Shown: positions 36,088-57,645, counted from the stretch's first letter. The stretch: DNA of 64,000 nt from an uncultured Methanosarcinaceae archaeon (GCA_963847185.1 CAWJYV010000001.1:64001-128000); one strand, 5' to 3'. Numbers and translations are program-made. Notes: generated by a model from the sequence alone, not told the origin.

Positions 36088-39000
36088 TCAATATTGTAGA
36101 GCTGATGCCAGATTATCTTTTTCTGTTACTGTGAATTTTATAGTGAATTCCGTCCCCTTGTTCCTTTTCAGTTCAAGTTCACCATCTAATTGATCTACAA
36201 GGGAAGTTACTAGCTGAAGCCCAAGACTATCAATCTCTTCAATATCAAGGTTTTCAGGAATACCGACACCATTGTCTAAAACGGTCAGGGTAAAACTGGT
36301 ACTTTTACAGCCATTGCTTTTGCATTCGCCTTTTTCTTCTCTACGGAGTTTGATTCGGATTTCTCCTTTATCCATGTCAGGAAATGCATACTTGAGGGAG
36401 TTTGAAACTAGTTCGTTGATGATTATCCCTAATGGAATAGCAGCATCCATGTCTAAAAAAAGGTTCTCTTCTAGATCCAGATTTAAGCTGATATTTGCAT
36501 TTCCAAGCCTATATGTCTGGAAAAGATTTTCAGCTAGTTCCTCAATGTATGGCGAAAAGTTAAGTGTATCGAGTCCTTCACTTTTGTGTAGTTCCTCATG
36601 AATCAGAGCCATGGATATTACTCTGTCCTGGCTTTCCCTAAAAGCTTCAATAACTTTAGGATTATCGAACTTTTCAGCCTGAAGGTCAAGAAGGGATGAG
36701 ATGATTTGAAGGTTATTTTTAATCCTGTGGTGAATTTCTCTTTTGCGTGCAATTTCTATATTTGTCAGAGCTTTTTCTGCTTTTTTCCTCTCAGTAACGT
36801 CGAGAACAAAGGCTATGCCTTCATTGTGCACCCGATCGAAGGCAGCTATTCCAACAATGACAGGTACACGTGAACCATCTTTGCGAATGTATTCCTTTTC
36901 TTTTGGTTCTTTTACACCAATAGTTTTCATCTCAGCAATGGCTCTCTCGTCTAAGAATCGTTGCTCAGGCGGAGTCATCTTGTTCCAATTAACCTTCCCT
37001 TCCTGCAAGTCCTCACGCGTGTAACCTATAATCTCCAGTAACTTGTCGTTGGCATCGGTGATTAAACCATCAAGATTAAAGTAAAATACGCCGAACATAT
37101 CTGATTCGTAAAAGTGGCGAAGGCGTGTCTCGCTCTCACGCAGTGCTTTTTCTGCCTTGATACGCTCAGTAATATCTCTTACAATACCTGAGATAGCTAC
37201 AAGCTTTCCTGTAATGTCAAAGATCGGAGAAAAAGTTATTGAAACATTTATATGAGTACCGTCCTTTCTTAAACGTATAGTCTCATATTGGTGGATTTTT
37301 TCTACTTGTAGAACCCTTTCAGTTAATTTTTTTGTTTCGTCACGTAGATGGAATGGAGCCAGAAAGGATACGCTCTTTCCCAAAACTTCTTCAGCTAAAT
37401 AACCATAAACCTGCTCTGCAGCCTTGTTCCAGCTTGTAATAATACAATCAAGAGACAAGGTTATAATAGCATCATTCGACGATTCTATAGCATCTGCTAA
37501 TATCCTTATTTTCTCTTCTGTTCTTTTGCGCTCAGTTATGTCCTGGGTTATTCCCCTCACTCTAATAGGGATATTTTTCCCATCAAAAATAATTTCGGGT
37601 TTTGTATGGACTGAGCGCTCTTCCCCATTAGCTAAAATAATCCTATAATCAATGCCATAGAAATTCCCTTTTAATCCTTTTTTAACGGCGTTATCAAAGT
37701 AGTCTCGATCATCAGGGTGTATATAATTTAAAAGTTCATTAAGACCGGGGGCTGGTTCGTGAGGATCACGTCCGAAAATATGATACATTTCCTCAGACCA
37801 GTATGCTTTATCAGTTGCAATATTCCATTCCCAATTTCCAATATGAGCCATTTTTGAGCTTCAGCAAGACTTTTTTCACTTTCTTTCAACGAGTCATATG
37901 ACTTCTTCAAGTTCTAACTGTACGCTCTTTGACTAGTTTTTCCAAATTGTCACGTGCTTTTTTTAGAGCTTCTTCTGCCTGTCTGCGCTCGGTGATGTCC
38001 CGCGCCGCTCCTATCAGTCCTATGATGTTGCCCTGTCCATCATAGTACGGTGCTTTTACGGTCTGGAGGATGCGCCATCCATGTGATGTAAATATTCTCT
38101 CCTCTAAGGTTGTCCCTTTTCCGGTCTCTATGACTCGTTTGTCATCCTCCGCTAGCTTCTTGGCTATCTCAGGAGGGTGAAAATCGGCAACGGTTTTATT
38201 GAGTACCTCTTCAGGGGATTTGCCCATAAGCCTATAGTAAGCTGGGTTTGCCAGGATCATCCGGGCTTCTCTATCCTTGACGAAGATGGCGTCCGAGACG
38301 TTCTCCATGATGTCTCGGAGGAAGGCCTCACTCTTCCGGACCTCGTTCTCGATGCGACGCAGCTTCATAATCTTGTGAAGCTCATTAGCCACCAATTGGA
38401 GCTGCATGATATCGCGGTCGTTCGTACTCATCCACCTTGTTGCCCACACCGAAGATGATCCTCACCTTGTCGTTTTCGGTGACCGGCACGCTCATGAACC
38501 GCTTCACTGTAGCGTGTCCGGGCGGCAGTCCTTTTTGGTTCGGTGAGGAAGGAAAGTCGTTGTAGACCACCGGCCGCTTTAGCCGGACGCAATCGACCCA
38601 GTTACCTGCCTTTTCAATAGGGTAGTGCCCTTCGTTCCCTGCCAGTGCATGACCTCAATGCTTCCTGGTTCCAGGTGGTGAGGATGATCTCTTTCTCGTC
38701 CTCGGAGACGAGGTGGAAGAAGCCGATCGTGCTATCGGTTATCTTGACGGCTTGATTGAGTGCGAAATCGTAGAGTTCGCGGTCTGATAGGTTCGATGAT
38801 CGGGTATAGAGCTCGTATAAGCCGGTCGCTCGCGCCAGTTCGTTACTGAGCTGGTGCTCCGCCTGCCTGCGCTCGGTTATATCCTGGGTTATACCAAAAC
38901 CGCTTACGACAGCTCCATCTTTGTCAAACTCAAGATATGCTTTTTCACGTACCCACTTGATCTTACCGTCTACGATAATGCGGTGCTCGATGTCGTATGG

Positions 39001-40003
39001 TTCTCCATCTAACCCTGCTTTCCATTCTTTGTCAACATATTCCCTGTCATCCGGATGAACTGTTGAAAGAAAAGTCTCGTAGGTTAAAGGAGTACCTTTT
39101 GGGATTCCGAAGATACGATGATTTTCATCGGACCATGTTAATTCGTTTTTATGCACATCCAGACGCCAACTTCCTATATTTCCTACAGCCTGAGCCCGGT
39201 CGAAATCTTCACTTTTTTTCTCTAGCTTATCCACCAGAGCATCTCGTACCTCCAGCGACTGGGCTAATTTAATGTTACTATGGCTTAGCTGTGAGATCAT
39301 GTTAGCAAGTTTCATGAAGAAGGACATGCTCGTTTCAACAGTATCTCTGCTCAGCCGTGGAACTTTTTCCAGAGCTGCTATGTATTCCTCTTCATTAAAA
39401 TCATATTTTCTGGCCTGGGATCGGAAAAGCTCATAGTCCATAGGCTCGTCGTCAAAAAAGAACTGTCCTGAAAAGATATTGCCGACATGTTGGTTACCAG
39501 AGAAAATTGGAGTTACTATATCCCACATGTTGTTTTTGCACTTGTATAACTTAAACTCTCCCAGAGGAACGCCTGCGGACAGCTTTGTATCACTTTCCAC
39601 ACAGTGCTTGCAGGTTTCGGGGTGAACCCTATGGAACTTGGTGCAGATATCCTGCCATCCAACACCTATCAGAACATTGCCTTTGAGATCAAGTAAGGCC
39701 ATGGTAATGTGAGCAAATTTATAAAAGTCACTCATGAGGGACTGGACTGCCTGAACATCGATAATATCAGCCAGCTCAAGGTTTTCTACCCTCCTAGAAA
39801 GTGGGAGATCATTTTCCAACTTCAACCTGACGCGTTGCTCACTCTGGCTAAGCGCCTCGTTTGCCTTCTTACATTTGGTGATATCCCGGTTTAGTGCCAT
39901 ATTTTCGACATGTAAAGTCTTGATTGGCTTTTTCCAACTCAGCGATCCGTTCCCACATCTGGATCTCTATTTCATCCTTATTCGGAAGGTTAGAAGCACC
40001 CAT
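36088..40003 (-). pseudogene. PocR/PAS/GAF histidine kinase broken by several frameshifts (~37850, ~37910, ~38425, ~38640, ~39905)
   Basis: ORFs 38614-39900, 38385-38570, 37907-38449, 37728-37910 and 36088-37851 are consecutive domains; ATG40003 has the same leader as the paralogs. Confidence 0.85.
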
Positions 40004-43136: not shown

Positions 43137-44778
43137 CTTGACTTTGTCACATTTCCTTTTCACGTCTACCGTGAAGTATAATTTTATTCCTATATATTTG
43201 AGATCGTGAAACAAATAACAAGTGACTTTATCAAGTCAAACACTATCTCTGTAGAAAAATACATTTCTGAAACGAATCTTGAATTCTATTTTCAAACTAA
43301 AACTCGTTGTGTCGCTTCAACGTGTATTGATTACCTTAATGGTTTGATGCTTCTTCCATATCGGAAAAATTTGAGAAAAATGGCAATTTATTGTTGTAAA
43401 TGCTCTAACAACCAATCACTCAGCCATTTCCTCTCAACTTCTCCTTGGCTTTCTGCAGATCTCCTCAAATCTGTTCGAACAAAAGCCATTCAAACTATAG
43501 GCAAAAATGGTGTTCTTATACTTGACGAATCAAGCATAAAAAAATCTGGAAATAGTTCTGTTGGAGTTTCTCATCAGTATTGTGGCAACCTTGGAAAAAA
43601 GGACAATTGTCAGGTTGGTGTATTCCTTGCTTATTTTAAAAAGAAGAGAAGAATGTTGATTGATGAGAGATTATATCTCCCACAAAAATGGATTGATGAT
43701 AAGGTACGTTGTTTAAAGGCTAAAGTTCCTCTTGAAGAGATTAAATTCCGAACCAAGCATGAGCTTGGTCTTGAAATGATTGATAATGCAATAGAAGAAG
43801 GTATTCCTTTTTCCTATGTTACAATGGATGGATTCTACGGTGAAAATCCGGAGTTGTTGACAGAACTTGAAATTAGAGGTTTAACTTTTGTTGCAGACAT
43901 AGCTGTCGATACTCTTGTTTATATTGAGGAACCAGTTGCTGAGATACCTGCGAAAAAGGGAATAAGAGGAAGAAAACCCACTATCCCCAAGGTTTTGAAT
44001 ACATTATCAACAAGAGTAGATTCTCTTTCCAATTCAGTTGAGGGATGGGAACTTATCAATGTTAGAAAAACGGAAAGAGGGTATAAAAAAGTCTATTTTA
44101 AGGCTATAAAAGTTTGGAGACGTCAGAATAAATTACCTTGTGAGAAGCCGGTATGGCTTCTTATAAGTAAAGATTCAGAATCAAATGAAATTAAATATTC
44201 ACTATGTAACGCCTCTGAAGATACATCATTCGATAAACTTGCAAAAATGCAGAGTTCAAGGTATTGGATTGAGAGAGCATTTCAAGATGCGAAAGGAGAC
44301 TGTGGAATGGCAGAATACATGGTGAGAAATTGGAATGCGTGGCACCATCATATGGCATTAGTAATGCTTGCAATGCTTATTTTACTCTCCTATCAGAAAA
44401 AATTCAACAAAATGTATAAGATGTCAATTCCTGGAGTTTTATGGATACTGAAGTACCATAATCCATTGAAAAGAATCGATGCTCGGGAAATTGCAGGAAT
44501 CTTAAATCAAGATAATGAGTTGAGAAGGAAAGCAAGGGTTAGCAGATTAAGAAGTTCATAATAATTTTCTGATTGGAATAAATGGATTCGTGTTCCGACG
44601 ACTGGTAAGTATACAATTTTGACAGGAAAAATTTATGACAGTAGAAATAATGGAGATAGTGATCAAGAAAAAAATAGAAGAAACAAGAATAGGAAAGGGA
44701 AAAGATTAAAGATACAGCAAATTTGAATGGAAATAAGTTGTGATGATTGTAAAAATGAGTTAATTTGACAAAGTCAAG
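43137..44778 (+). mobile_element. IS701 family element
   Basis: TIR CTTGACTTTGTCA(C/A)ATT 16/17; TTAT duplication at 43133-43136 and 44779-44782. Confidence 0.9.
43206..44561 (+). CDS. IS701 family transposase
   Basis: ILDESSIKKSGNSSVGVSHQYCGNLGKKDNCQVGV; RYWIERAFQDAK. Confidence 0.93.
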   Translation: MKQITSDFIKSNTISVEKYISETNLEFYFQTKTRCVASTCIDYLNGLMLLPYRKNLRKMAIYCCKCSNNQSLSHFLSTSPWLSADLLKSVRTKAIQTIGKNGVLILDESSIKKSGNSSVGVSHQYCGNLGKKDNCQVGVFLAYFKKKRRMLIDERLYLPQKWIDDKVRCLKAKVPLEEIKFRTKHELGLEMIDNAIEEGIPFSYVTMDGFYGENPELLTELEIRGLTFVADIAVDTLVYIEEPVAEIPAKKGIRGRKPTIPKVLNTLSTRVDSLSNSVEGWELINVRKTERGYKKVYFKAIKVWRRQNKLPCEKPVWLLISKDSESNEIKYSLCNASEDTSFDKLAKMQSSRYWIERAFQDAKGDCGMAEYMVRNWNAWHHHMALVMLAMLILLSYQKKFNKMYKMSIPGVLWILKYHNPLKRIDAREIAGILNQDNELRRKARVSRLRSS

Positions 44779-46384: not shown

Positions 46385-47674
46385 TTATTGGCTAGAGCGT
46401 AATCCGTTAATGATTTCTTCTAGAAGGAGGAGGGCACCCGAAACTCCCAGATATGTCTTAGGGAGAAAGTGGATGTATCCCTCTTCAGGAATGGTTATTT
46501 CAATGCCTGTTTTGCAACATTCCTTTGCTTTTAAAAGTTGCAGAGTAGGACCATCTGCAAAGGCAATGTCCACCGATTCAAGGGTAAGATCTTTATCCCA
46601 TGCTTCAAAAAAACCATTTTCTTCTAGAAATATTCTGAGATTTTCTGCTGCTTTAGGATCGCTTCCAGGAAGTAGTTTTACTGCAAGAGGAGCCATTCCC
46701 AAGTAAGAATAAAGCCAGTGTATAAGGGAATAGGCAAGGGAACTTTCAGCCCTGACTGAAAAACTGGCTCCTTTGGGAAGCCCTGAGAAAGAATGGAAAC
46801 GCGAAATCTGTTGATAACTTACCTTTCTGGCTTTATGGACTTCTGCGAGGGCAGGTGCAGGGTTGATATCCAGAACAGCTGCAACTTCCCTCAGCAGGCT
46901 TTCAATCGCATCAAACCCAAGGGGAGCCCCAAAAGGAGAAAACACAGCTGGGATCCCAAAATGTTCTTTATACCATTCTGCAATCCTTCTTCCGTATTCG
47001 GGGAAAATAACGATATTACAGGCTGCTTCGCCTGACTTCCGGATTTCGTTGAGGGAAGTTCCGGCAAGGAAAACGGTTCCTACCTCCAGGTTAAGAAAAG
47101 CCAGAAGCCGCTTCATTTCTGTAACTGAGCCTTCCCAGTGTTTATTGAGCAGGGAAAGCCCAATCAGATTCACTTTTTTTGAAGAGCCTATATTATGGGA
47201 GGCCTGAAGATTCAGGTGCTTGAGCAGGGTAAGGGCAGTATTTTCAAAGCCAGTTGCTGCGGGAAGGGAAAAACCTGTATTTTCTATCACAAAACAGCGG
47301 TCCTGCATCCTTACTTTTTTAATTACACCTTCCAGGTCGTCTCCCAAAAGGCTTGCTCCTGGGGAATTAATCACCACAAGTAAGCCTTTTTCCTTTGCTG
47401 CTATTGTTGTAAGTGCTCTCTCAAATTTTTCAAGGGAACCTTGAATGTAGTCTTCCCCATCCAAGCAGGTGCAGGGAACTCTAGGCTGCCCGACATAGAA
47501 CTCATCCTGGAATGCCAGGGGGTCATGTGAACTTTCTCTGGGAAATTGTCTGTCTGAGAGAAAACCATGGTATAACTTGCATCCTGTAGGCCCGTTCAGG
47601 AGCACAGCCGCATCTCTGATCCCTTCTACCGCCATGATAGAACCTGTAAAAGAATCAGGAGAAAAAATCAACAT
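46385..47674 (-). CDS. nitrogenase component 1-like oxidoreductase, beta/K-like subunit
   Basis: [21 protein letters not shown]; overlaps the stop of the upstream gene. Confidence 0.88.
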
Positions 47675-50004
47675 TCATCACCACCGTCATACTTCCATCC
47701 TTCCACAGCTGGAAGCCGTAGAAGTGTACTCCAGCGTTTTGCAAGCTCAAGCCCACTAAGGAACCCCACCCGTGGGGAAAAGGGGATGGTATCGTAATGC
47801 ACTCCATCTTCAGGGACCGAAAGTGCATAATTCGAAAGGACAAAGTCTGGCTTGAAAATCTTAATATCCCTTTCTCTTTTTTCATCAGTATAGTTCCTCT
47901 CTATTGGGAAATTTTCGTGAGACTGGAGGTTGAGGTTTTTCCTCTCAAAAAAAGAGACTGGAATTCCAACTTTGATAATTTCCATTCCTAGATCTTGGAT
48001 GGTGTCCAGCACCCATCCGCTGTTCTCTGTGTAGTTCACCAAAAGTACGCGCTTACCTGAGAGATAAGGAGCATATTTTTCAATCCCTAATCTATACATC
48101 TTTTCCTGTTCCTGCAGCAGGGGTGTGAAATCTTTTCCAGGGAGCAGACGTGCTACTAGGGCTTTCACCCAGAGAGAACTTTCCTGGAAACCCACAGGAA
48201 ATGGAAGCTCAAAAAACTCAACCCCGAAACGCTCAGAAAGGTATGCTTGCATGTTTCGGGTATCTGGGTCATCATAGGCTAACAAGTTGATTTCCGCTTT
48301 TTTAAAAGAACGAAGGGAAAGAGTGTCTGTCCTTTTTAAAAACCTGCAATTGACCTTGTAACCCAACCTTTTGAGGAGCTTCTCAACAGTATGGAAGTGT
48401 TCTTCGTCCCTCAGGGAAACACTCCTTTCTCCAATAATATTGACCAGACCTTTTTCAGGCTTTACAGAAGGATCAATCAGGTCAGCAACTTTTTTGTAGC
48501 CCTCAAGCAATCCAGTCGAAAAGTCTCCTGTAATAACTCCTTCTACAGGAATGGGGATAACTCTTGCTCCGGGAAAACGGACTTTCGCTCTTGAGGTTGC
48601 CTTTTTTATGTCGTCGCCTATAATCCCTGTGGGGCAGGTGTTCACCACAAAAACAGTTCGCCAGCCAGCTGAAAGGGCTTCTTCGATTTTCCTCTCAAGC
48701 TTTTCAAATCCCCCGAAAATTGCTTCCTCTTCGTTTATATCTGTGGGTAAGAGGCTAGAGATCTGCCTTTCATCGTTAGTCTGTATATTTATTCTTCCTC
48801 CCCTTAAAAATGAGCCTACAAGGGCATCGGTTATAAAATGAGTGCAGCTTCTTGGCCCGTGTAGAACGGTAGCAGCATCGTTAACCTGAAAAGTCGCAGT
48901 TACAGCCCCTGAAAAAGCGCAACCATAAAGAAGCGGTCTAGAAGTAAATACTATTGGAGATGGCGTAGACACTTTTTTGGAAGTTCCCGTGAAAATTTCT
49001 ACAGGTTGTATTTCGGGAATCACTTTACAGCTATTTTCAGAACTTGCTTCGGGTATCTTCATGTGGATTTTCGTGGAAGATCCGTTTTCTTGTCTGATAG
49101 GAACAGATTCAGCATATTGCCTTTTTTCGGATACAGAACCTATTTCAAATGACTTTATATCGGGTCGTTCACGCCTTCCAAGCACCAAGGCTTCAAGCTC
49201 AAGGTCACTTAGGGGGTTGGCAAGGTAGAGCAGGCTCCGATTCTTTTCCAGGGTTTCAACATATCTTGCTAACTCCCTGAAAACATTTGCAGGGACAGAA
49301 GAAGGGAAGGCTTCAGCCAGGGTTTTTCCGGCTTTTTCAGCCCTAGAAAATACTTCATCCCTGGGAAGGGAGGCTACTACAGGCAGCCCTACTGCCTGAG
49401 CAAAGGCATAAACTCTTTTCTCTTCAGCGAAAAGTCCGCGTCTGTTGAAGATGATGCCTGCAACTCTGGGGGCTGTGTCCTCGAAATTCTGGATTCCCCG
49501 GAGGATATTATTGGCTGCGTATAGGGCCATATATTCCCCTGAAGTCACCAGAAAAACCGCATCAGCATATTCTTTCCTGAGGGGAAGTGCAAACCCTCCA
49601 CAGACTACGTCCCCAAGAACATCATAGAGAACGACGTCGAAAGAGGAAGCTCTAAGCCCTAGGCGTTTTAAGACCTCAAAGCTACTCAGTATTCCCCTAC
49701 CTGCACATCCTATTCCGGGTTTTGGACCTCCGACTTCTATGCAGGCAATGCCTCCATAGCCTTCAAAGACCACGGCTTCAAGATGCTGCGCTTCCTGAGG
49801 ATTTTTGCGCATATAGTCCAACACTGTGGGGATATCGGCCCCTCCAAGGAGCAGACGAGTAGAATCGTGTTTTGGGTCGCAGCCGACCTGCAACACCCTT
49901 TTTTTCAAATCAGCAAGGGCAGCCGAGAGATTTGCAGCAATGGTTGACTTCCCTATGCCTCCTTTCCCATAAAGAGCAATTTGGATTATGTTTTTTTCCC
50001 CCAT
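47668..50004 (-). CDS. NifH-like Fe protein fused to nitrogenase component 1 alpha/D-like domain
   Basis: [37 protein letters not shown]; then [24 protein letters not shown]. Confidence 0.93.
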
Positions 50005-50053
50005 GGTTTACTGAATTATCTAGGATGGATATTCCTGAATCATTTGCTAAATT

Positions 50054-50491
50054 TTAGTACTTTCCCATAATCTTTACAATTCCCCTGTGCATACCATGAA
50101 TGCTTAACCCATTACCGAGATACATCATTGGGCAGTATCCAGTTATACACTTAAATCCCTGTTTTTGGCAGGCTTCCACGGATTTTTCAGTATCAGTTCT
50201 CCAGTGAAGCCATACTTTTTTTATGCCTTTTCCTTTAAGAATAGGAATTAAATCGCCTGGTTCGGTATTTGTGACTCCAATAACCACATGATCTACGTCT
50301 ACGGGAATTTCAGCCAGGTCTGTAAGTGAATCTCGATCAGGTTTTTGGGAAAGGTCTACAAGATATACTTTTTTACCTCTGCTTTTGAGTTCAGAGGCTG
50401 TCCATTTCATAGCCGGCTTTGTGTGATCAGTGATTATTGCAAAAGTTTGTGCATCCCAGAACTTTTCTCTATCCATGCTAGAGGAGTCCAT
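50054..50491 (-). CDS. CoA-binding (YccU-like) protein
   Basis: Rossmann-like; KKVWLHWRT..GYCPMMY; start ATG50491 after GGTGA. Confidence 0.75.
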   Translation of the reverse strand: MDSSSMDREKFWDAQTFAIITDHTKPAMKWTASELKSRGKKVYLVDLSQKPDRDSLTDLAEIPVDVDHVVIGVTNTEPGDLIPILKGKGIKKVWLHWRTDTEKSVEACQKQGFKCITGYCPMMYLGNGLSIHGMHRGIVKIMGKY

Positions 50492-50513
50492 ATTGAGTTC
50501 ACCTTTACTTTGA

Positions 50514-50918
50514 TCAAAGCAATTTCTGTCCTGCATTTGGACCAGGAGCACATTGAAAGACGTTGGAAATCTGAACTTCTATAAGAGTCTTTGCAGGAAG
50601 TCCGGGTTTTGCTGTATGCACAATTGACTTCATTTTTTCAAACTTTTCTCCCGATTCGATAACAATTGCTTTACCTTTTATTTGAAAGCAGCCACCTGTA
50701 TCAGGACCCCAAACGTAAATTGCAACATTAGGATTTTCTTTTAAGTTTGCTAAGGATTTACTCATGAAATTATCCACAATCCAGATTGTATCATCATCGA
50801 TAAGTTGGCAGAACCCTATAGGTACTACATTTGGAATTCCATCCTTTGAGGCTGTAGCTACAGGAAAAATCTTAACCTTTGAAAATGCAGTTTTCGTCTC
50901 TTCATCTAATTTTACCAT
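50514..50918 (-). CDS. pyridoxamine 5'-phosphate oxidase family (FMN/F420-binding split barrel)
   Basis: VATASKDGIPNVVP...NLKENPNVA...FQIKGKA. Confidence 0.9.
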   Translation of the reverse strand: MVKLDEETKTAFSKVKIFPVATASKDGIPNVVPIGFCQLIDDDTIWIVDNFMSKSLANLKENPNVAIYVWGPDTGGCFQIKGKAIVIESGEKFEKMKSIVHTAKPGLPAKTLIEVQISNVFQCAPGPNAGQKLL

Positions 50919-51190
50919 AATATCACAACCATCAATTATCAACATCTTAAAGATCTGGTTCGTAATTTATAAGCAAGTCTTAACGGTGTATATTTATATA
51001 CCTATGCGTCATAATTATGTACCAATTTTATATTGTACAGAAAAATGACCTTGGGATAGTTTTCTATGATAGCATTAAACCGTTAACAGTCAAATAAGCG
51101 ACCTGAATTAAAGCAACATTTTGTCGAAATAACATTTAATTGCATCAAATTAACAATCGGTTTTCTAGTAATTTTAGAGGGTAAGCAAAA

Positions 51191-51312
51191 GTGGAGACAA
51201 AGAGTGAAAACACTGAGGATTATTACAGAGAAGAACTGCACGCTATTAAAGAAGAGATTATATCTCTGAGAAACGAATTTTCACAATTTTTACAAAAGGC
51301 AAACCAACAGCA
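51191..51312 (+). pseudogene. 5' fragment of a gene (probably a regulator) truncated by IS6
   Basis: coiled-coil-like ORF with GAGG RBS runs into the IS6 TIR at 51313. Confidence 0.5.
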
Positions 51313-51860
51313 GGTTCCGTTGCAAAAAATCATGATATTGAAGCAAAAATTTAGTTTCACAACAAAGAACATAAAGAAACAGAATATCTCAAATAACATC
51401 CAGATTTAGGCAGCTATTTCGAATAACTGGTTTATAAAATTGACTTCAGCACGGACACATTGATTTAAAGTATCAACCTGTCCTTTTTTATCATATGCAT
51501 GATTTCAATTCCTTTTATAGTTTTAATAGCCGTAGAAAAAGACTGGAAACCTAACATTGGACACACTATCCGTTTTATAGATCTATGATCCTGTTCAACA
51601 ATGTTATTTAAATACTTAATTTGTCGAAGATTTACATTTTGAGGTAACATTCTATTATTTTTCAGTTCATTTATAGCAGGTGGATAAGCTGGATTTTTAT
51701 CAACTGTTATTACTCTTGGGATTTGATTGTGCTTTGAACCCAAAGCTTTCTTAAGGAATCTCTTTGCAGCTTTTTTACTTCGTTTTGCACTTAACATGAA
51801 ATCGATTGTATTACCATTTGAGTCAACTGCTCTGTAAAGATATTTCCATTCACCTTTTAC
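51313..51860 (-). mobile_element. IS6 family element, 3' half with truncated transposase
   Basis: TIR GGTTCCGTTGCAAA; KGEWKYLYRAVDS..TDK..NNIVEQDHR. Confidence 0.9.
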
Positions 51861-52575
51861 TGCTATGGGAGCGCGGAGGGTCACGAATGCCCAGACTTTT
51901 AAGTCTGGGATGAAGTGAACCCTCGCAGGTTTTTCGACATTCACCTTAAAAATCTAAAATCGTCACTTTTTTCAATATAAAGTTTTTTGACACCATAGCC
52001 ACAGGCGGTTGCAGCCACCTATGGCTAGGATGTGATAAGCATTGGAATTGCGTAGTTTTAGCCACGGCTATGGTCAGATCACCTACCACCTCGTATTGGC
52101 GCCTAAGTACAGATTCAAAATATTCTATAACAATAGAGTTAAAAAGGATTGCGAATCGATCTTCAAAAACATTTGTACTGAGAAAGGCTATAGAATACAT
52201 GCCATGGAAATAGTAGAAGACCATGTGCACTTGTTTCTGGAATTCCATCCCAGCACCTCACTATCCAAGGTAATTCAACACCTAAAAGGAGGAAGTTCTT
52301 ACAGATTATTTAAGCTTCATCCTGAACTAAGGGAAAAATACTGGGGTGGAAGTCTATGTCAAGTGGCAAGTTCTATAGATCAATTGGGAATGTAACTGCT
52401 GACACAATCAAGCATTATATTAACTATTCACAAGGAAAACCAAAAAAAGAGATTATAACGAATAGAATAAAGAAATCTGGACAATTGAAACTAAGCGATT
52501 TCTAACTTCCTCAAAAATCGGCGGACGGCCCGAAGCATACCCTACCTTTTAAGGTAGGGTGGCCGTCTGCAATTT
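51861..52575 (+). mobile_element. tnpA: IS200/IS605 family element, tnpA only, frameshifted near 52358
   Basis: YHLVLAPKYR, DHVHL HUH motif; subterminal hairpins 51890-51909 and 52539-52560; abuts the IS6 transposase. Confidence 0.9.
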
Positions 52576-54223: not shown

Positions 54224-55334
54224 ATGCTCGCACTCAATCCTCATTCAAACAGCCCAGAAAGGCAGATTGTTCTCCATGTAGACATGGATTCGTTTTTTTG
54301 CATCAGTTGAAGTCAGAGAACATCCTGAACTTAAAGGTCTACCTGTTGTAGTGGGCTCAGACCCGAAGGAAGGGAAAGGTAGAGGAGTGGTTAGCACTTG
54401 TTCATATGAAGCAAGGAAATACGGGATACACTCGGCAATGCCAGTTTCGCAGGCTTATAAACTTTGTCCAGATGCTGCCTTTGTGCCTGTGAACATGAAA
54501 CTCTATGCACAGGTTTCAGCGAACTGTAATGGAAATAATAAAGGGTTTTGCTGAAAAATTCCAGCAATATAGTGTGGACGAAGCCTTTCTAGTGCCAGGA
54601 CCTGAGATAAAGAATTTTGAAGAAGCTGCCATTATTGCACTGAGGATAAAGGATGAGATCCAGAAACAAGAAAGAATAACCTGTTCTGTAGGAGTGGAAC
54701 CGAATAAGCTTGTTGCAAAGGTAGCTTCAAAGTTTGAGAAACCTGATGGTCTCACAGTTATTAGACCTGACAGATGTCAAGATTTTCTATTTCCCTTAAA
54801 TGTTTCAAAGATTCCGGGTATTGGTGAAAAAACAACAGAGGCCCTTAAATTGATGGGAATAACTCAAGTTGAAGAGCTTGCTAATTGCGATATCCAGAGG
54901 CTTTCTGAAAGGTTCGGGAAAATGGGGCTCTGGATGAAGCAGGTGGCATATGGTCTGGATTTCAGTGAAGTAAAGGAATGGGAAGAAGCTGTAAAGTCAA
55001 TAAGCAGGAGTGGAACGTTTGATGAAGATACAAACGATCCTGTAAAAATTGCAGGCTTTCTGGAATTGCTTGCTGAGAGCGTACATAGAGCTCTCATAAG
55101 AGATGGATTTCTTTTCAAAGTCGTAACCCTTAAAGGTCCGCTTCGAAGACTTTTCCACATATACACGCTCAAAGACTGTTTCTGTCTGGACTTCTGATAT
55201 TTTCGTGATTAAAAGGGTCGCCATGCAACTGCTTTCTGAGTTTATTGGAAAACAAAAAATTAGACTAGTAGGTGTAGGAGTTTCAAGACTTAGGGAAAGA
55301 GACGAGAGACAGACGCTTGATTACGGATTTTTAA
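54224..55334 (+). pseudogene. dinB: DNA polymerase IV (DinB/Dbh), multiple frameshifts
   Basis: [31 protein letters not shown], in different frames. Confidence 0.9.
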
Positions 55335-55459: not shown

Positions 55460-57645
55460 ATGGGAAAAAGAGGAGCAAAGCCAAAGTTCACTGACGTTTC
55501 TTGTCCTAATCCGGATTGTAAACTTTATGGTGTTACTGGAAAAGAAAACATCATAGGCAATGGTACCTATCAAATCAAGAATAAGCGAGTTCGAAAATAT
55601 ATCTGCCGCAAATGCGGCAGAGTATTCAATGATCGAACAGGTACTTTTTTTGAGAATGTTCGCAAAGACGAATCTGACATTAAACTAGCCCTTAAAATGG
55701 CTATTAAAGGAATGTCAATACAAGCTATTTCTTATGTATTGGAAGTTCAACCTGCCACAGTAAGTAACTGGTTGTTTCGCGCAGCGAAACAATGTGAGAA
55801 GGTAAATGAAGACTTGATGAAGGATCTTAATATTTCCAAAGTTGAGATGGATGAACTATGGGTAATAATTGAAAAAAAGTTGCTCCAAGAACAGAAGTTG
55901 AAGATGATGGAGCATGGATGTGGGTGAGCTTTGCACCTGAGTCCAGATTAATAATTGATTTTGTACTGGGACCAAGAAAACAGTATGTGGCAGACGAATT
56001 TGTAAATATTACAGATAAACATCTTTCAACTTTAAAACCTCTTTTTGTTACAGATGGATTCTATGCTGAAGCTCTTTTGAAAAAATATGGTGATTTGGTA
56101 GAGTTTTCTAAAAATGGGAAGAGAGGAAGACCCAGAAAACTAGCAATAGTACCTAATGAAAATCTGAAATATGCTCAGGTTATCAAAAACAAACTGGGAA
56201 AGAAGCTTCAGAAAATTGAAAAAAGAGTAATCTTTGGTCAAAATATAGATCAAAGTGAAATTTCAACAAGTTTGCTTGAAAGACAAAATCTAACATTTAG
56301 ACAGGATAACAATAGAGTTTCAAGGAAGACAATAGGGTTTTCAAAGAAAATTGAGGGATTGTACAACCAAATGAGACTTTATTGCACTCATTTTAACTTT
56401 TGTAGAGACCATAGAGGATTAAAAAAGAAAAAGAAAATGGAGTTTTGGGAAAGAAAACACCAGCAGAAAAATATGGGATTACTAAAAATATAGTTCCTGA
56501 CTCAACAAATTACACTTTTTATTTGTGGATTGAATGTTTCCATCCATTTCTTTGCAAATGATAATGAGTTTTTCACTTTCATAAATTCATTTTTGATAAT
56601 CTTTTTTAAATGTTCTTTTGATTGAATAAATCTAACAGATACTTCTCTCTTAATCGTTTTCCATACAAATTCTACAGGATTTAGATCTGGTGAATAAGGA
56701 GGAAGAAACACAAGTGTTATATTTAATTCTCTTGCTTTCCTTACCGTTTTATCAGCATGATGTGACCTCGAATTATCCAGAACAAGAATTATTCTTTTCC
56801 CTAAATTCTGTTCCACAATTTTCTCAAGGAATTCACATACATTTTCTGCTTTTGAACTTTCCATAAAATCGATGAGATTTCTACCATTAATCGAATAGAA
56901 TGCAAACGCATTTGCTTTTATATAATCTGTATTTTTTGTTATCAAAGGCTTTTTAAATGACCATAATCGTTGCGTATTTGCTTTTGTTTGTGGTGAGGAT
57001 TCATCCAAAAAACCTATAAGATATTGATCATCTGGACCAATATATGCTGGAATTGCTTCTATTAACTTTTTTTAAAATTTCCTCAGCATTTTTAGGTCTT
57101 CTGTAGTCAAGAGTATATGGTTTTGAATGATACATGTTAAAACTATGCAGTATAACTCCTACTTGTTTCTGTGAATACTCTACCCCATATTTTTCCTTTA
57201 TTAACTCCAAAGCTTCTCTTGTAGTCCAATGATCTTTTTTTTCCAGCAAGATTCTTAACTCTTTTATTTGATCATCGGTAAGCTTGGATTTTCTCCCCCC
57301 ACCAAAATTTGGTATTAAGGCGGCATAGCCGCCTTTATTCCAGGCATCTTGCCAGTAATATCCTGTTTTCTTAGTAACTCCAACTTTAGTAGCGGCTTCT
57401 TCTACTGAATCCCCTAAAAATCTAAATTTTACAAAATAGAGCCTTTTAAGCACTCTTGAATTGGTTTCATGTTTGATTAAAACGTTGATTTCATCAAGAA
57501 CTAATTTTTGATCAATTGGAATGCGTTCTTTCCCCACCATATAAGTAGATAGGTGTTAATACGTGTAATAAGTTACGTTGAAGATTATAAATGGACATTA
57601 ACAGATTTGTTAAATTATAGGAATAGAAAAATATCAACTAATTAA
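55460..57645 (+). mobile_element. IS1 family transposase (two ORFs), C-terminus interrupted by IS630
   Basis: CPNPDC..CRKC Zn finger, EMDELW, LERQNLTFRQ; frame resumes as KWTLTDLL at 57590. Confidence 0.85.
56491..57587 (-). mobile_element. IS630 family element (two ORFs, slippery A-run) inserted at TA
   Basis: LDNSRSH, LPPYSPDLNPVE; TA at 56489-56490 and 57588-57589; removal restores the IS1 frame. Confidence 0.92.

Follow-up and report, generated by a model that had tools for sequence, protein, structure and literature searches.

A NifH-NifD/E-like fusion protein and its NifK/N-like partner in a Methanosarcinaceae archaeon: a discrete nitrogenase-like family and a candidate reductase of corrinoids or other tetrapyrroles

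What does a nitrogenase-like enzyme reduce when its NifH-like and NifD/E-like parts are joined in one polypeptide and its genes lie apart from the nif genes of the host? This question is raised by a 64,000-nucleotide (nt) stretch of DNA, here called the window, from an uncultured Methanosarcinaceae archaeon (GCA_963847185.1, CAWJYV010000001.1:64001-128000), in which a four-gene cluster encodes a NifH-NifD/E-like fusion, a NifK/N-like subunit and, upstream of both, a PNPOx-like and a CoA-binding protein. The present analysis finds that the fusion and its K-like partner belong to a discrete family with its own clade outside the Nif, Mar-like, dark-operative protochlorophyllide oxidoreductase (DPOR), chlorophyllide oxidoreductase (COR) and CfbD proteins. 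The pair is presumably an ATP-driven, nitrogenase-like reductase that does not fix N2. With regard to the substrate, the explanation that we prefer, at somewhat less than even confidence, is a corrinoid or another tetrapyrrole, which would be reduced either at the ring or at the cobalt centre.

Metal ligands and family placement

The NifH-like domain retains the P-loop GKGGIGKST and the two cluster cysteines of NifH type (C100 and C135), which were checked at the codon level and are invariant in the 15 fused homologues aligned. The three D-type cysteines, C362 (GCAF), C387 (GPRSC) and C457 (NTCP), are invariant in both alignments made (15/15 and 19/19), and in a HMMER alignment to solved NifEN structures they fall on three cysteines of NifE. 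In the HMMER alignment, Tyr577 (AEINLLAY) falls on the cysteine of NifE AEVNMMVC, which is the position of alpha-Cys275, the ligand of the iron-molybdenum cofactor (FeMoco). Elsewhere in the fused family this position is occupied by Y, H, S, F, K, Q, N, D or E; a cysteine was found there in 2/19 and 1/15 sequences of the two alignments, all of them from close Methanosarcina relatives. The K-like subunit keeps a single ligand cysteine, C32 (GPTGC), which is invariant in 19/19 K-like proteins, and its other two P-cluster positions read PDSF and NSPG. C32 aligns with the cysteine of BchZ, with the non-cysteine ligand position of BchB and with one of the three cysteines of NifK and NifN. At this position DPOR uses an aspartate (Asp36). 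The position of C32 is the one named betaC95 or NifN-C44 by Dos Santos et al. 2012 (PMC3464626). A further cysteine of the K-like subunit, Cys68 (RVPCT, window 47471-47473), lies outside the canonical ligand positions and is present in 16/19 K-like proteins, with serine in the other three.

NifDK, VnfDK and AnfDK carry six P-cluster cysteines, three in each subunit, together with the FeMoco ligand alpha-Cys275. In the pair studied here the first set is incomplete, C32 being all that the K-like subunit retains of it, and the second is replaced by Tyr577. The three cysteines of NifE and the one of NifN have their counterparts in C362, C387, C457 and C32, and the L-cluster cysteine of NifE is lacking (Tyr577). 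The arrangement of three cysteines in BchY and one in BchZ is also present, as found by alignment with the annotated Roseobacter ponti proteins. This 3+1 set predicts one [4Fe-4S] cluster bridging the D and K subunits, and neither a P-cluster nor a site for FeMoco or the L-cluster; N2 would therefore not be a substrate.

The fusion and the K-like protein are not members of a CHARACTERISED family. NCBIfam equivalog models, with their own cut-offs, were used as score tests, and every score stayed far under its cut-off (Table 1). Among sequences of the PDB, the D domain matched NifE best (82.8 bits) and MarD with 61 bits, and the K-like protein matched MarK best (64.8 bits) and BchB with 38 bits. 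The AlphaFold2 model of the D domain (predicted local distance difference test, pLDDT, 81.5) has NifE and NifD as nearest folds, with a template modelling (TM) score of about 0.65, while that of the K-like protein (pLDDT 87.0) is nearest to BchB (TM 0.80-0.83) and MarK (TM 0.80).

Table 1. Scores of the fusion and K-like proteins on NCBIfam models of characterised relatives
Model	Score (bits)	Cut-off (bits)	Remark
CfbC	321.9	402	best match of the H domain
nifH	312	394	
nifE	104.8	505.1	best match of the D domain
nifD	82.3	653.6	
nifN	24	327	
vnfK, anfK	at most 35	> 850	
CfbD	30.2	268.4	
BchB	79.2	490	
BchZ	40.6	529	
BchN	37-48	324-420	

Hidden Markov models (HMMs) built for the family separate it clearly, with at least 268 bits for fused-family D domains against at most 183 for all other D-like proteins compared, and at least 241 bits for family K proteins against at most 165 for other K-like proteins compared. 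The window proteins scored 615 (D) and 663 bits (K) on these models, which include the window's own sequences. The traits that define the family were all found in the window, namely NifH and D/E in one open reading frame (ORF), an N/K-like gene directly downstream and the family HMM scores.

A quick maximum-likelihood tree of 100 component-1 subunits took in NifD, NifK, NifE, NifN and CfbD of the host genome, BchN, BchB, BchY and BchZ of an R. ponti plasmid, the MarDK orthologue and many unfused nif-like pairs. The fused D domains formed one clade, with a Shimodaira-Hasegawa-like approximate likelihood ratio test (SH-aLRT) value of 98, and their K partners another (97), the window proteins lying inside both. 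The sister of each clade consisted of short unfused NifEN-like pairs of Methanomicrobiales, and both clades were separate from NifD/E and Mar-like proteins, BchN/Y, BchB/Z and CfbD. It must be noted that the deep branching order of this tree is unsafe because the Bch and CfbD branches are long. In the tree of H domains, 14 of the 15 fused domains fell in one clade with a weak SH-aLRT value of 86, two of the 14 coming from a single protein (L034), while the Bathyarchaeia domain (L050) lay elsewhere; no deep placement was drawn from it.

On these points the initial annotation was largely borne out. It had described the NifH motifs as intact, the three D-type cysteines as kept with AEINLLAY at the FeMoco-ligand position, and GPTGC as the only P-cluster motif of the K-like subunit, all of which the alignments show. 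It had also equated the 3+1 cysteines with the BchY/BchZ pattern, which agrees with the R. ponti pair, and to this it must be added that NifEN shows the same pattern. Neither a full set of P-cluster nor of FeMoco ligands was seen, and the comparison with NifDK/EN, Mar-like, CfbD and BchNB/YZ proteins which it had called for placed the family outside all of them, in a clade for which the literature searched gave no function. Its proposal of an ATP-driven reductase other than a nitrogenase is supported by the lack of a P-cluster cysteine set and of a conserved FeMoco or L-cluster cysteine and by the scores under the cut-offs.

Gene context and the nature of the substrate

The fusion and the K-like subunit would together constitute a two-component reductase, in which a NifH-like ATPase and electron donor is tethered to the D/E-like subunit by a flexible linker. 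Two H domains would dimerise around a [4Fe-4S] cluster held by C100 and C135, bind ATP and dock on the D/K pair, and this H2 dimer would pass one low-potential electron per cycle to the D/K [4Fe-4S] cluster (C362, C387, C457 and C32). From there, electrons would go on to a corrinoid or tetrapyrrole bound between D and K, either for the reduction of a ring double bond, as in DPOR, COR and CfbCD, or for that of Co(II) to Co(I) at the metal. The linker of about 77 residues, being poorly conserved and of variable length among homologues, would allow the docking of the H domains. While domains, ligand pattern, clade and gene neighbourhoods are shown by the data, we infer the quaternary structure, the type of cluster, the coupling to ATP and the substrate.

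Two lines of evidence point to the substrate. On one hand, the characterised relatives with one [4Fe-4S] cluster and no complex cofactor, which are DPOR, COR and CfbCD, are all described as reducing tetrapyrroles in a 2026 review (PMC13474568). On the other hand, genes that point to uptake, trimming and metal insertion of corrinoids or tetrapyrroles are found around the fused pair in relatives. The context was counted with HMMs built from neighbour proteins of Methanosarcinaceae, in fetched flanks of unequal length. At least one of FecCD, Peripla_BP_2, CbiZ, CbiK, CobN or DUF1638 was present in the flanks of 19/32 fused loci; the same set was present in 5/68 non-fused NifH loci. The commonest neighbours were the FecCD/Peripla_BP_2 importers (12/32 fused loci). 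In Methanolobus/Methanococcoides-like genomes the pair is embedded in the conserved series CbiZ, Peripla_BP_2, FecCD, ABC ATPase, fusion, K-like gene, CbiK and CobN, close to ChlI/ChlD-like AAA+ and VWA genes. The immediate neighbours of the pair are FecCD-type importers or CobN, in varied order and orientation, also in four Thermoplasmatota loci (L023, L025, L031 and L032) and in L050, which comes from a Bathyarchaeia metagenome-assembled genome (MAG). A BtuFCD-CbiZ locus for cobinamide salvage, which may or may not be that of L050, has been described in that MAG series (PMC11697101). In addition, DUF1638 flanks the pair in four Methanosarcina-type loci, and a genetic tie of DUF1638 to B12 reactivation has been reported (10.1101/192971). 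Taken together, the chemistry of the simple [4Fe-4S] relatives and these neighbourhoods favour a corrinoid or tetrapyrrole as substrate.

A link between simple nif-like reductases and transporters or chelatases may extend beyond the fused family. Unfused nif-like sets which are neither Nif nor Mar were seen beside CobN/ChlID (L084, Dialister succinatiphilus) or FecCD (L041, L057, L058 and L095).

A narrower proposal, which we advance with considerable doubt, is that the enzyme carries out an unknown ATP-driven step in the salvage or remodelling of corrinoids or tetrapyrroles in methanogens and other anaerobes. One option would be a cob(II)inamide or cobamide reductase making Co(I) for adenosylation after import; another would be a ring or demetallating reductase enabling re-metallation by the neighbouring CbiK/CobN chelatases.

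Several observations weigh against a corrinoid or tetrapyrrole substrate. No corrinoid-type neighbours were found in the window or in 6/8 other Methanosarcina-type loci (L099, L100, L102, L103/L104, L105 and L107), and in the Firmicute loci the neighbours are others, namely an energy-coupling factor (ECF) transporter, a DAO oxidoreductase, and PALP plus an aminotransferase. The 19 positive loci amount to about five lineages, related genomes not being independent, and the context HMMs come from one family and were applied to flanks of different lengths. The best sequence match of the D domain, NifE, is a scaffold and not a reductase. Lastly, the RNA contigs described below derive from metatranscriptome libraries, which may hold DNA, and cannot prove a single transcript.

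Among the known systems, COR (BchX-BchYZ) and DPOR (BchL-BchNB) resemble the enzyme proposed here in that an ATP-dependent NifH-like donor serves a D/K-type pair with one bridging [4Fe-4S] cluster. COR has its three plus one cysteines at the same positions as the fused family, and the fold of the K-like subunit is nearest to BchB. They differ in that the scores are far under the cut-offs and the clades are separate, with long branches; moreover, H is here fused to D and the host is not a phototroph. CfbCD is likewise a nitrogenase-like system of methanogens with a simple [4Fe-4S] cluster, it reduces a tetrapyrrole, and CfbC is the best NCBIfam match of the H domain. A persistent CfbC-CfbD complex is mentioned in a Chem Rev review, and we liken it to the covalent tether of the fusion. 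CfbD differs from the fused family in forming a homodimer that has no K subunit and lacks the first cysteine, whereas here a K-like gene overlaps the fusion gene. A separate cfbCD-like pair is encoded on contig C8 of the host genome.

The Group VI nitrogenase-like proteins of Elusimicrobia should also be considered as possible relatives. They are described as having at most four of the six P-cluster cysteines and no FeMoco ligands (Meheust et al., 10.1101/765248). The same source reports no link to NifB, proposes a role with tetrapyrroles, mentions radical SAM neighbours and places Group VI NifH homologues in 14 Myxococcales genomes. At the level of description, the cysteine count, the lack of FeMoco ligands and of a NifB link and the proposed tetrapyrrole role agree with the fused family, of which the forms with two H domains presented below come from Myxococcota/Polyangiaceae. 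The radical SAM neighbours are a difference, and no fusion is described there.

The context of the fused pair could also be read in another way, since FecCD-type importers carry siderophores and haem as well and thus do not single out corrinoids. The enzyme might then reduce another imported metal chelate or small molecule, such as a ferric siderophore, haem as an anaerobic iron source, or a non-tetrapyrrole, and the varied neighbourhoods in Methanosarcina and Firmicutes are consistent with this. We consider it unlikely, given that the chemistry suggested by CbiZ, CbiK, CobN and DUF1638 is that of corrinoids or tetrapyrroles rather than of siderophores; as haem belongs to the tetrapyrroles, its reduction would fall under the explanation preferred here.

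The resemblance to NifE raises a different question, that is, whether D/K carries a metal cluster or cofactor as a NifEN-like scaffold or maturase, with the fused NifH as ATP-dependent insertase and maybe coupled to metal import through the ABC transporters next to it. NifE is the best match of the D domain in NCBIfam (104.8 bits), in the PDB (82.8 bits) and in fold, the 3+1 cysteines equal those of NifEN, and CbiK and CobN chelatase genes neighbour the pair in relatives. A coupling of metal transport and cofactor assembly has been suggested for transporter-linked nif-like genes (Dos Santos et al., 2012; PMC3464626). Nevertheless, such a role is quite improbable. The L-cluster cysteine is replaced by Tyr577 at a position that is not conserved, the nifE score is far under the cut-off of 505 and the D domain lies outside the NifE/NifD clade. 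Besides, the window holds neither nifB nor any other nif gene, those of the host (nifB and nifHDKEN) being on other contigs.

MarK, the best PDB sequence match of the K-like subunit (64.8 bits) and one of its top fold matches (TM 0.80), would be compatible with a reductase of organosulfur compounds (C-S bonds), of the methylthio-alkane or isethionate reductase kind, serving sulfur acquisition, and in one of the 32 fused loci (L030) PALP and aminotransferase genes adjoin the pair. This alternative is highly improbable. Mar (MarHDK, Group IV-C) and most Group IV systems are described with P-cluster cysteines, the Cys270/275 ligand and a NifB-like radical SAM gene (PMC13474568, PMC11423573). All of these are absent here, the Pfam domain scans having found no radical SAM (MarB-like) gene in the cluster. 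Nor is the D domain a MarD orthologue, since its 61 bits on MarD compare with 306 for the true orthologue of Ruminiclostridium hungatei (L086), and it lies outside the Mar-like clade.

Finally, that the genes are a decaying or silent remnant, kept by chance after a rearrangement mediated by insertion sequences (IS), is hardly credible: IS elements do flank the cluster, the distribution is patchy (9/19 other same-genus genomes), one fusion gene elsewhere (L115) is in four ORFs and a decayed nif-like remnant exists on contig C4, but neither the fusion nor the K-like ORF is disrupted and all family-invariant residues are present, the 5 kb recur at 99.5% identity in a second genome (G098), and RNA-library contigs of two studies match all four genes.

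The four-gene cluster, its expression and its mosaic origin

The organization of the cluster is provided in Table 2. ORF calls gave four closely spaced ORFs on the minus strand between 46385 and 50945, which after correction of starts becomes 46385-50918; the coordinates and domain calls of the initial annotation were correct, and all four ORFs have Pfam matches. The most likely starts of the CoA-binding and PNPOx-like genes are ATG 50491 and ATG 50918, respectively, picked by comparison with the orthologous module of a related genome (G132). In the fusion (P0001), Fer4_NifH covers residues 8-274 (E 1.8e-89) and Oxidored_nitro residues 362-762 (E 2.8e-74), and the latter domain is also that of the K-like protein (P0002, E 3.1e-41). 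CoA_binding_2 was matched with 27.9 bits (P0003, cut-off 22.8) and PNPOx_N with 84.5 bits (P0004, cut-off 28.1). The last 7 nt of the fusion gene are shared with the K-like gene. With the corrected starts, 22 nt separate the PNPOx-like from the CoA-binding gene, and 49 nt lie between the latter and the fusion. The G+C content is 0.31 across 50919-51464. A scan for bacterial-type promoters and terminators, which is of a type inapplicable to archaea, did not rise above shuffles (16 found, 11.1 expected), and no tRNA or Rfam family was found within the window.

Table 2. Features of the cluster and its flanks in the window
Feature	Coordinates	Strand	Description
PNPOx-like split-barrel (flavin-type) protein, first gene of the cluster	50514..50918	-	134 aa from ATG 50918; PF01243
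CoA_binding_2 (YccU-like) protein	50054..50491	-	145 aa from ATG 50491; PF13380; AAGGTGA precedes ATG
NifH-NifD/E-like fusion gene (P0001)	47668-50004	-	778 aa; Pfam Fer4_NifH + Oxidored_nitro
NifH-like ATPase domain of the fusion, residues 1-275	49180..50004	-	PF00142; P-loop, switch regions, C100, C135
H-D linker of the fusion, ~77 residues	48949..49179	-	homologue alignment columns ~290-400
NifD/E-like domain of the fusion, residues 353-778 + stop	47668..48948	-	PF00148; C362, C387, C457, Tyr577
NifK/N-like subunit (P0002)	46385..47674	-	429 aa; PF00148; single conserved ligand Cys C32
AT-rich upstream region, TATA-like TATATAAATATA	50919..51060	-	possible archaeal promoter of the cluster
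IS240-type DDE transposase fragment, upstream flank	51465..51944	-	PF13610, E 9.4e-41
DDE_5 transposase, downstream flank	43206..44561	+	PF13546, E 1.2e-50

Contigs from four metatranscriptome libraries of two studies cover parts of all four genes at 95-100% identity. Single contigs span the PNPOx/CoA junction (50414-50915 and 50404-50729) and the CoA/fusion junction (49765-50064 and 49826-50221); RNA contigs are lacking over, for example, 47545-47903, which includes the fusion/K junction and is uninformative either way. Given the short gaps and the contigs bridging both junctions, co-transcription of the cluster is plausible.

In a search of the whole genome with PF00148, the contig of the window held only the fusion and K-like matches, and nifB matches were located on other contigs, in agreement with the claim that nifB, nifE and nifN are missing from the window. 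A third nif-like system was seen in the host genome at C9:23830-26492 and C9:32781-33566 (L006, L008, L013 and L121). Its K-like protein (449 aa) and its NifH cluster with those of a Methanoculleus palmolei set, in which the D protein reaches 250 bits on MarD. The D-like gene of this third system runs over two ORFs (320 and 287 aa) and therefore may be broken.

The two upstream genes have a different history. They had been presented in the initial annotation as flavin-binding and CoA-binding partners of the reductase, which is not sustained, as they constitute a separate two-gene module whose neighbourhood is not conserved. In tblastn searches of 80 loci of other species neither gene was detected. 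Among same-family loci, the CoA-binding gene was present in 0/20, and it adjoins the fusion only in the species of the window (G000 and G098); a strong PNPOx homologue lies near the fusion in 3/20 same-family loci only (L106, L108 and L109), upstream of one to three DUF1638 genes that precede the fusion. The PNPOx family itself occurs in 40/41 same-genus genomes, with or without the fusion. In G132 (81% complete) the module stands alone, the PNPOx gene (91% identical) being directly followed by the CoA-binding gene (95%) with no fusion after, and the pair adjoins an ArsR-like gene; the DNA similarity between G132 and the window, at 92%, spans exactly 50022 to 50927. The locus of the window is otherwise syntenic with two same-genus genomes, with the PocR-PAS gene on one side and the DinB-like polymerase gene on the other. 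Therefore, the four-gene cluster is a mosaic, in which a mobile PNPOx-CoA module took the place of what natively lay upstream of the fusion-K pair, within an IS-rich stretch. The module probably supplies the promoter in the window's species; a functional role for it is possible and not required.

Paralogues of the PNPOx-like protein are encoded in the host genome on contigs C10 (83%) and C2 (51%). The former lies at C10:526022-531590 (L119) with a small Cys-rich ORF, DUF1638 and a CHASE4-PAS histidine kinase, an order which mirrors PNPOx, DUF1638, fusion, K and kinase of L106, L108 and L109 but without the fusion pair. At C4:90023-92432 (L011 and L120), a 59% paralogue of the CoA-binding protein stands beside a flavodoxin-like/4Fe-4S protein and adjoins a decayed Oxidored_nitro remnant on the opposite strand, with five stop codons.

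Other observations concern the flanks. Upstream of the cluster, 186 bp at 51127-51312, adjoining the IS240-type element, are missing in the G098 contig, which is otherwise 98-99.5% identical. Further on, at 54505-55197, there is a DinB/IMS-type polymerase ORF of 230 aa which lacks the N-terminal part of the 396-aa L103 orthologue and is probably truncated; four transposase genes or fragments lie in this stretch (51465-51944, 55918-56493, 56502-57008 and 57028-57540). Downstream of the cluster, a run of sensor genes at 36088-39900 encodes one PocR-PAS protein, one PAS protein and one multi-PAS HisKA_2 histidine kinase. In L103 and L104, too, the fusion pair has the PocR-PAS gene as its downstream neighbour.

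Distribution, previous reports and meaning

A search with the whole fusion protein gave 2205 proteins at E <= 0.001 among 8000 candidates scored, and almost all of the best 120 matches listed carry both the NifH and the D domain. The sources listed include Methanosarcina, Methanolobus, Methanococcoides, Methanoculleus, Methanospirillum, Methanoregula, Methanolacinia, Methanomassiliicoccales and Chloroflexota, and the fusion is also present in records named Methanosarcina barkeri and M. acetivorans, both of them organisms with good genetics. The sources of the K-like partner include Desulfobacteraceae, Syntrophomonadaceae, Treponema, Eubacterium and Planctomycetota. Among the other genomes searched, the K-like gene was found in 23/120 of the host's family and in 9/19 of its genus, and is therefore accessory.

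Some homologues are single chains of 1080-1106 aa in which two NifH domains precede the D domain (H-H-D; P0058, P0078, P0065 and others), a natural "tethered Fe-protein dimer". One is encoded at L034:2627-5884 in a Myxococcota MAG, and members of its cluster are named Polyangiaceae; its two H domains are each other's closest kin in the H-domain tree. These chains argue that one H2 dimer serves one D/K half. A decaying copy is seen in a relative (G075, L115:7013-9194), where four ORFs (154, 91, 241 and 269 aa) are left of the fusion gene beside an intact K-like gene.

The existence of the fusion is already in print. It was noted by Dos Santos et al. (2012; PMC3464626), who filtered it from their tree with "data not shown", it was listed as "fused nifH/nifE" in the Methanomassiliicoccales paper of Borrel et al. 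(2014; PMC4153887), and it is cluster 443 of a 2024 survey of archaeal fusions (PMC11237513). The architecture in these papers is the same as here, with H fused to D/E followed by an N/K-like gene, and so are the hosts, comprising Methanosarcinales, Methanomicrobiales, Methanomassiliicoccales, Firmicutes and Deltaproteobacteria. They mention the fusion only, whereas the PNPOx-CoA module upstream is special to the species of the window. In full-text literature searches we found no assigned function, ligand analysis or context analysis of the fused family. The words "fused" and "fusion" do not occur in the text of the 2026 review of nitrogenase-like proteins (PMC13474568), and a search of the supplement of PMC13753814 found no Methanosarcina, Methanolobus or Methanospirillum and thus gave no match of the family to a published Group IV letter. 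New in this study are the finding that the ligands are invariant, the placement of the family in a clade of its own, its corrinoid-type gene context, the forms of H-H-D type and the recognition of the operon in the window as a mosaic.

According to the 2026 review, the main open problem of the field lies in the nitrogenase-like clades that are still uncharacterised and in the want of hosts amenable to genetics (PMC13474568). In this regard, the fused family is frequent among methanogens and among anaerobes of gut and sediment, and its gene context suggests a concrete class of substrate. If the salvage or remodelling role proposed above is true, the enzyme would be the fourth tetrapyrrole-reducing relative of nitrogenase and the first tied to B12 metabolism. 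Confirmation of such a substrate would extend the metabolism of corrinoids or tetrapyrroles by an ATP-dependent redox step, and the family would then show how a tethered Fe-protein works, including the natural H-H-D single chains.

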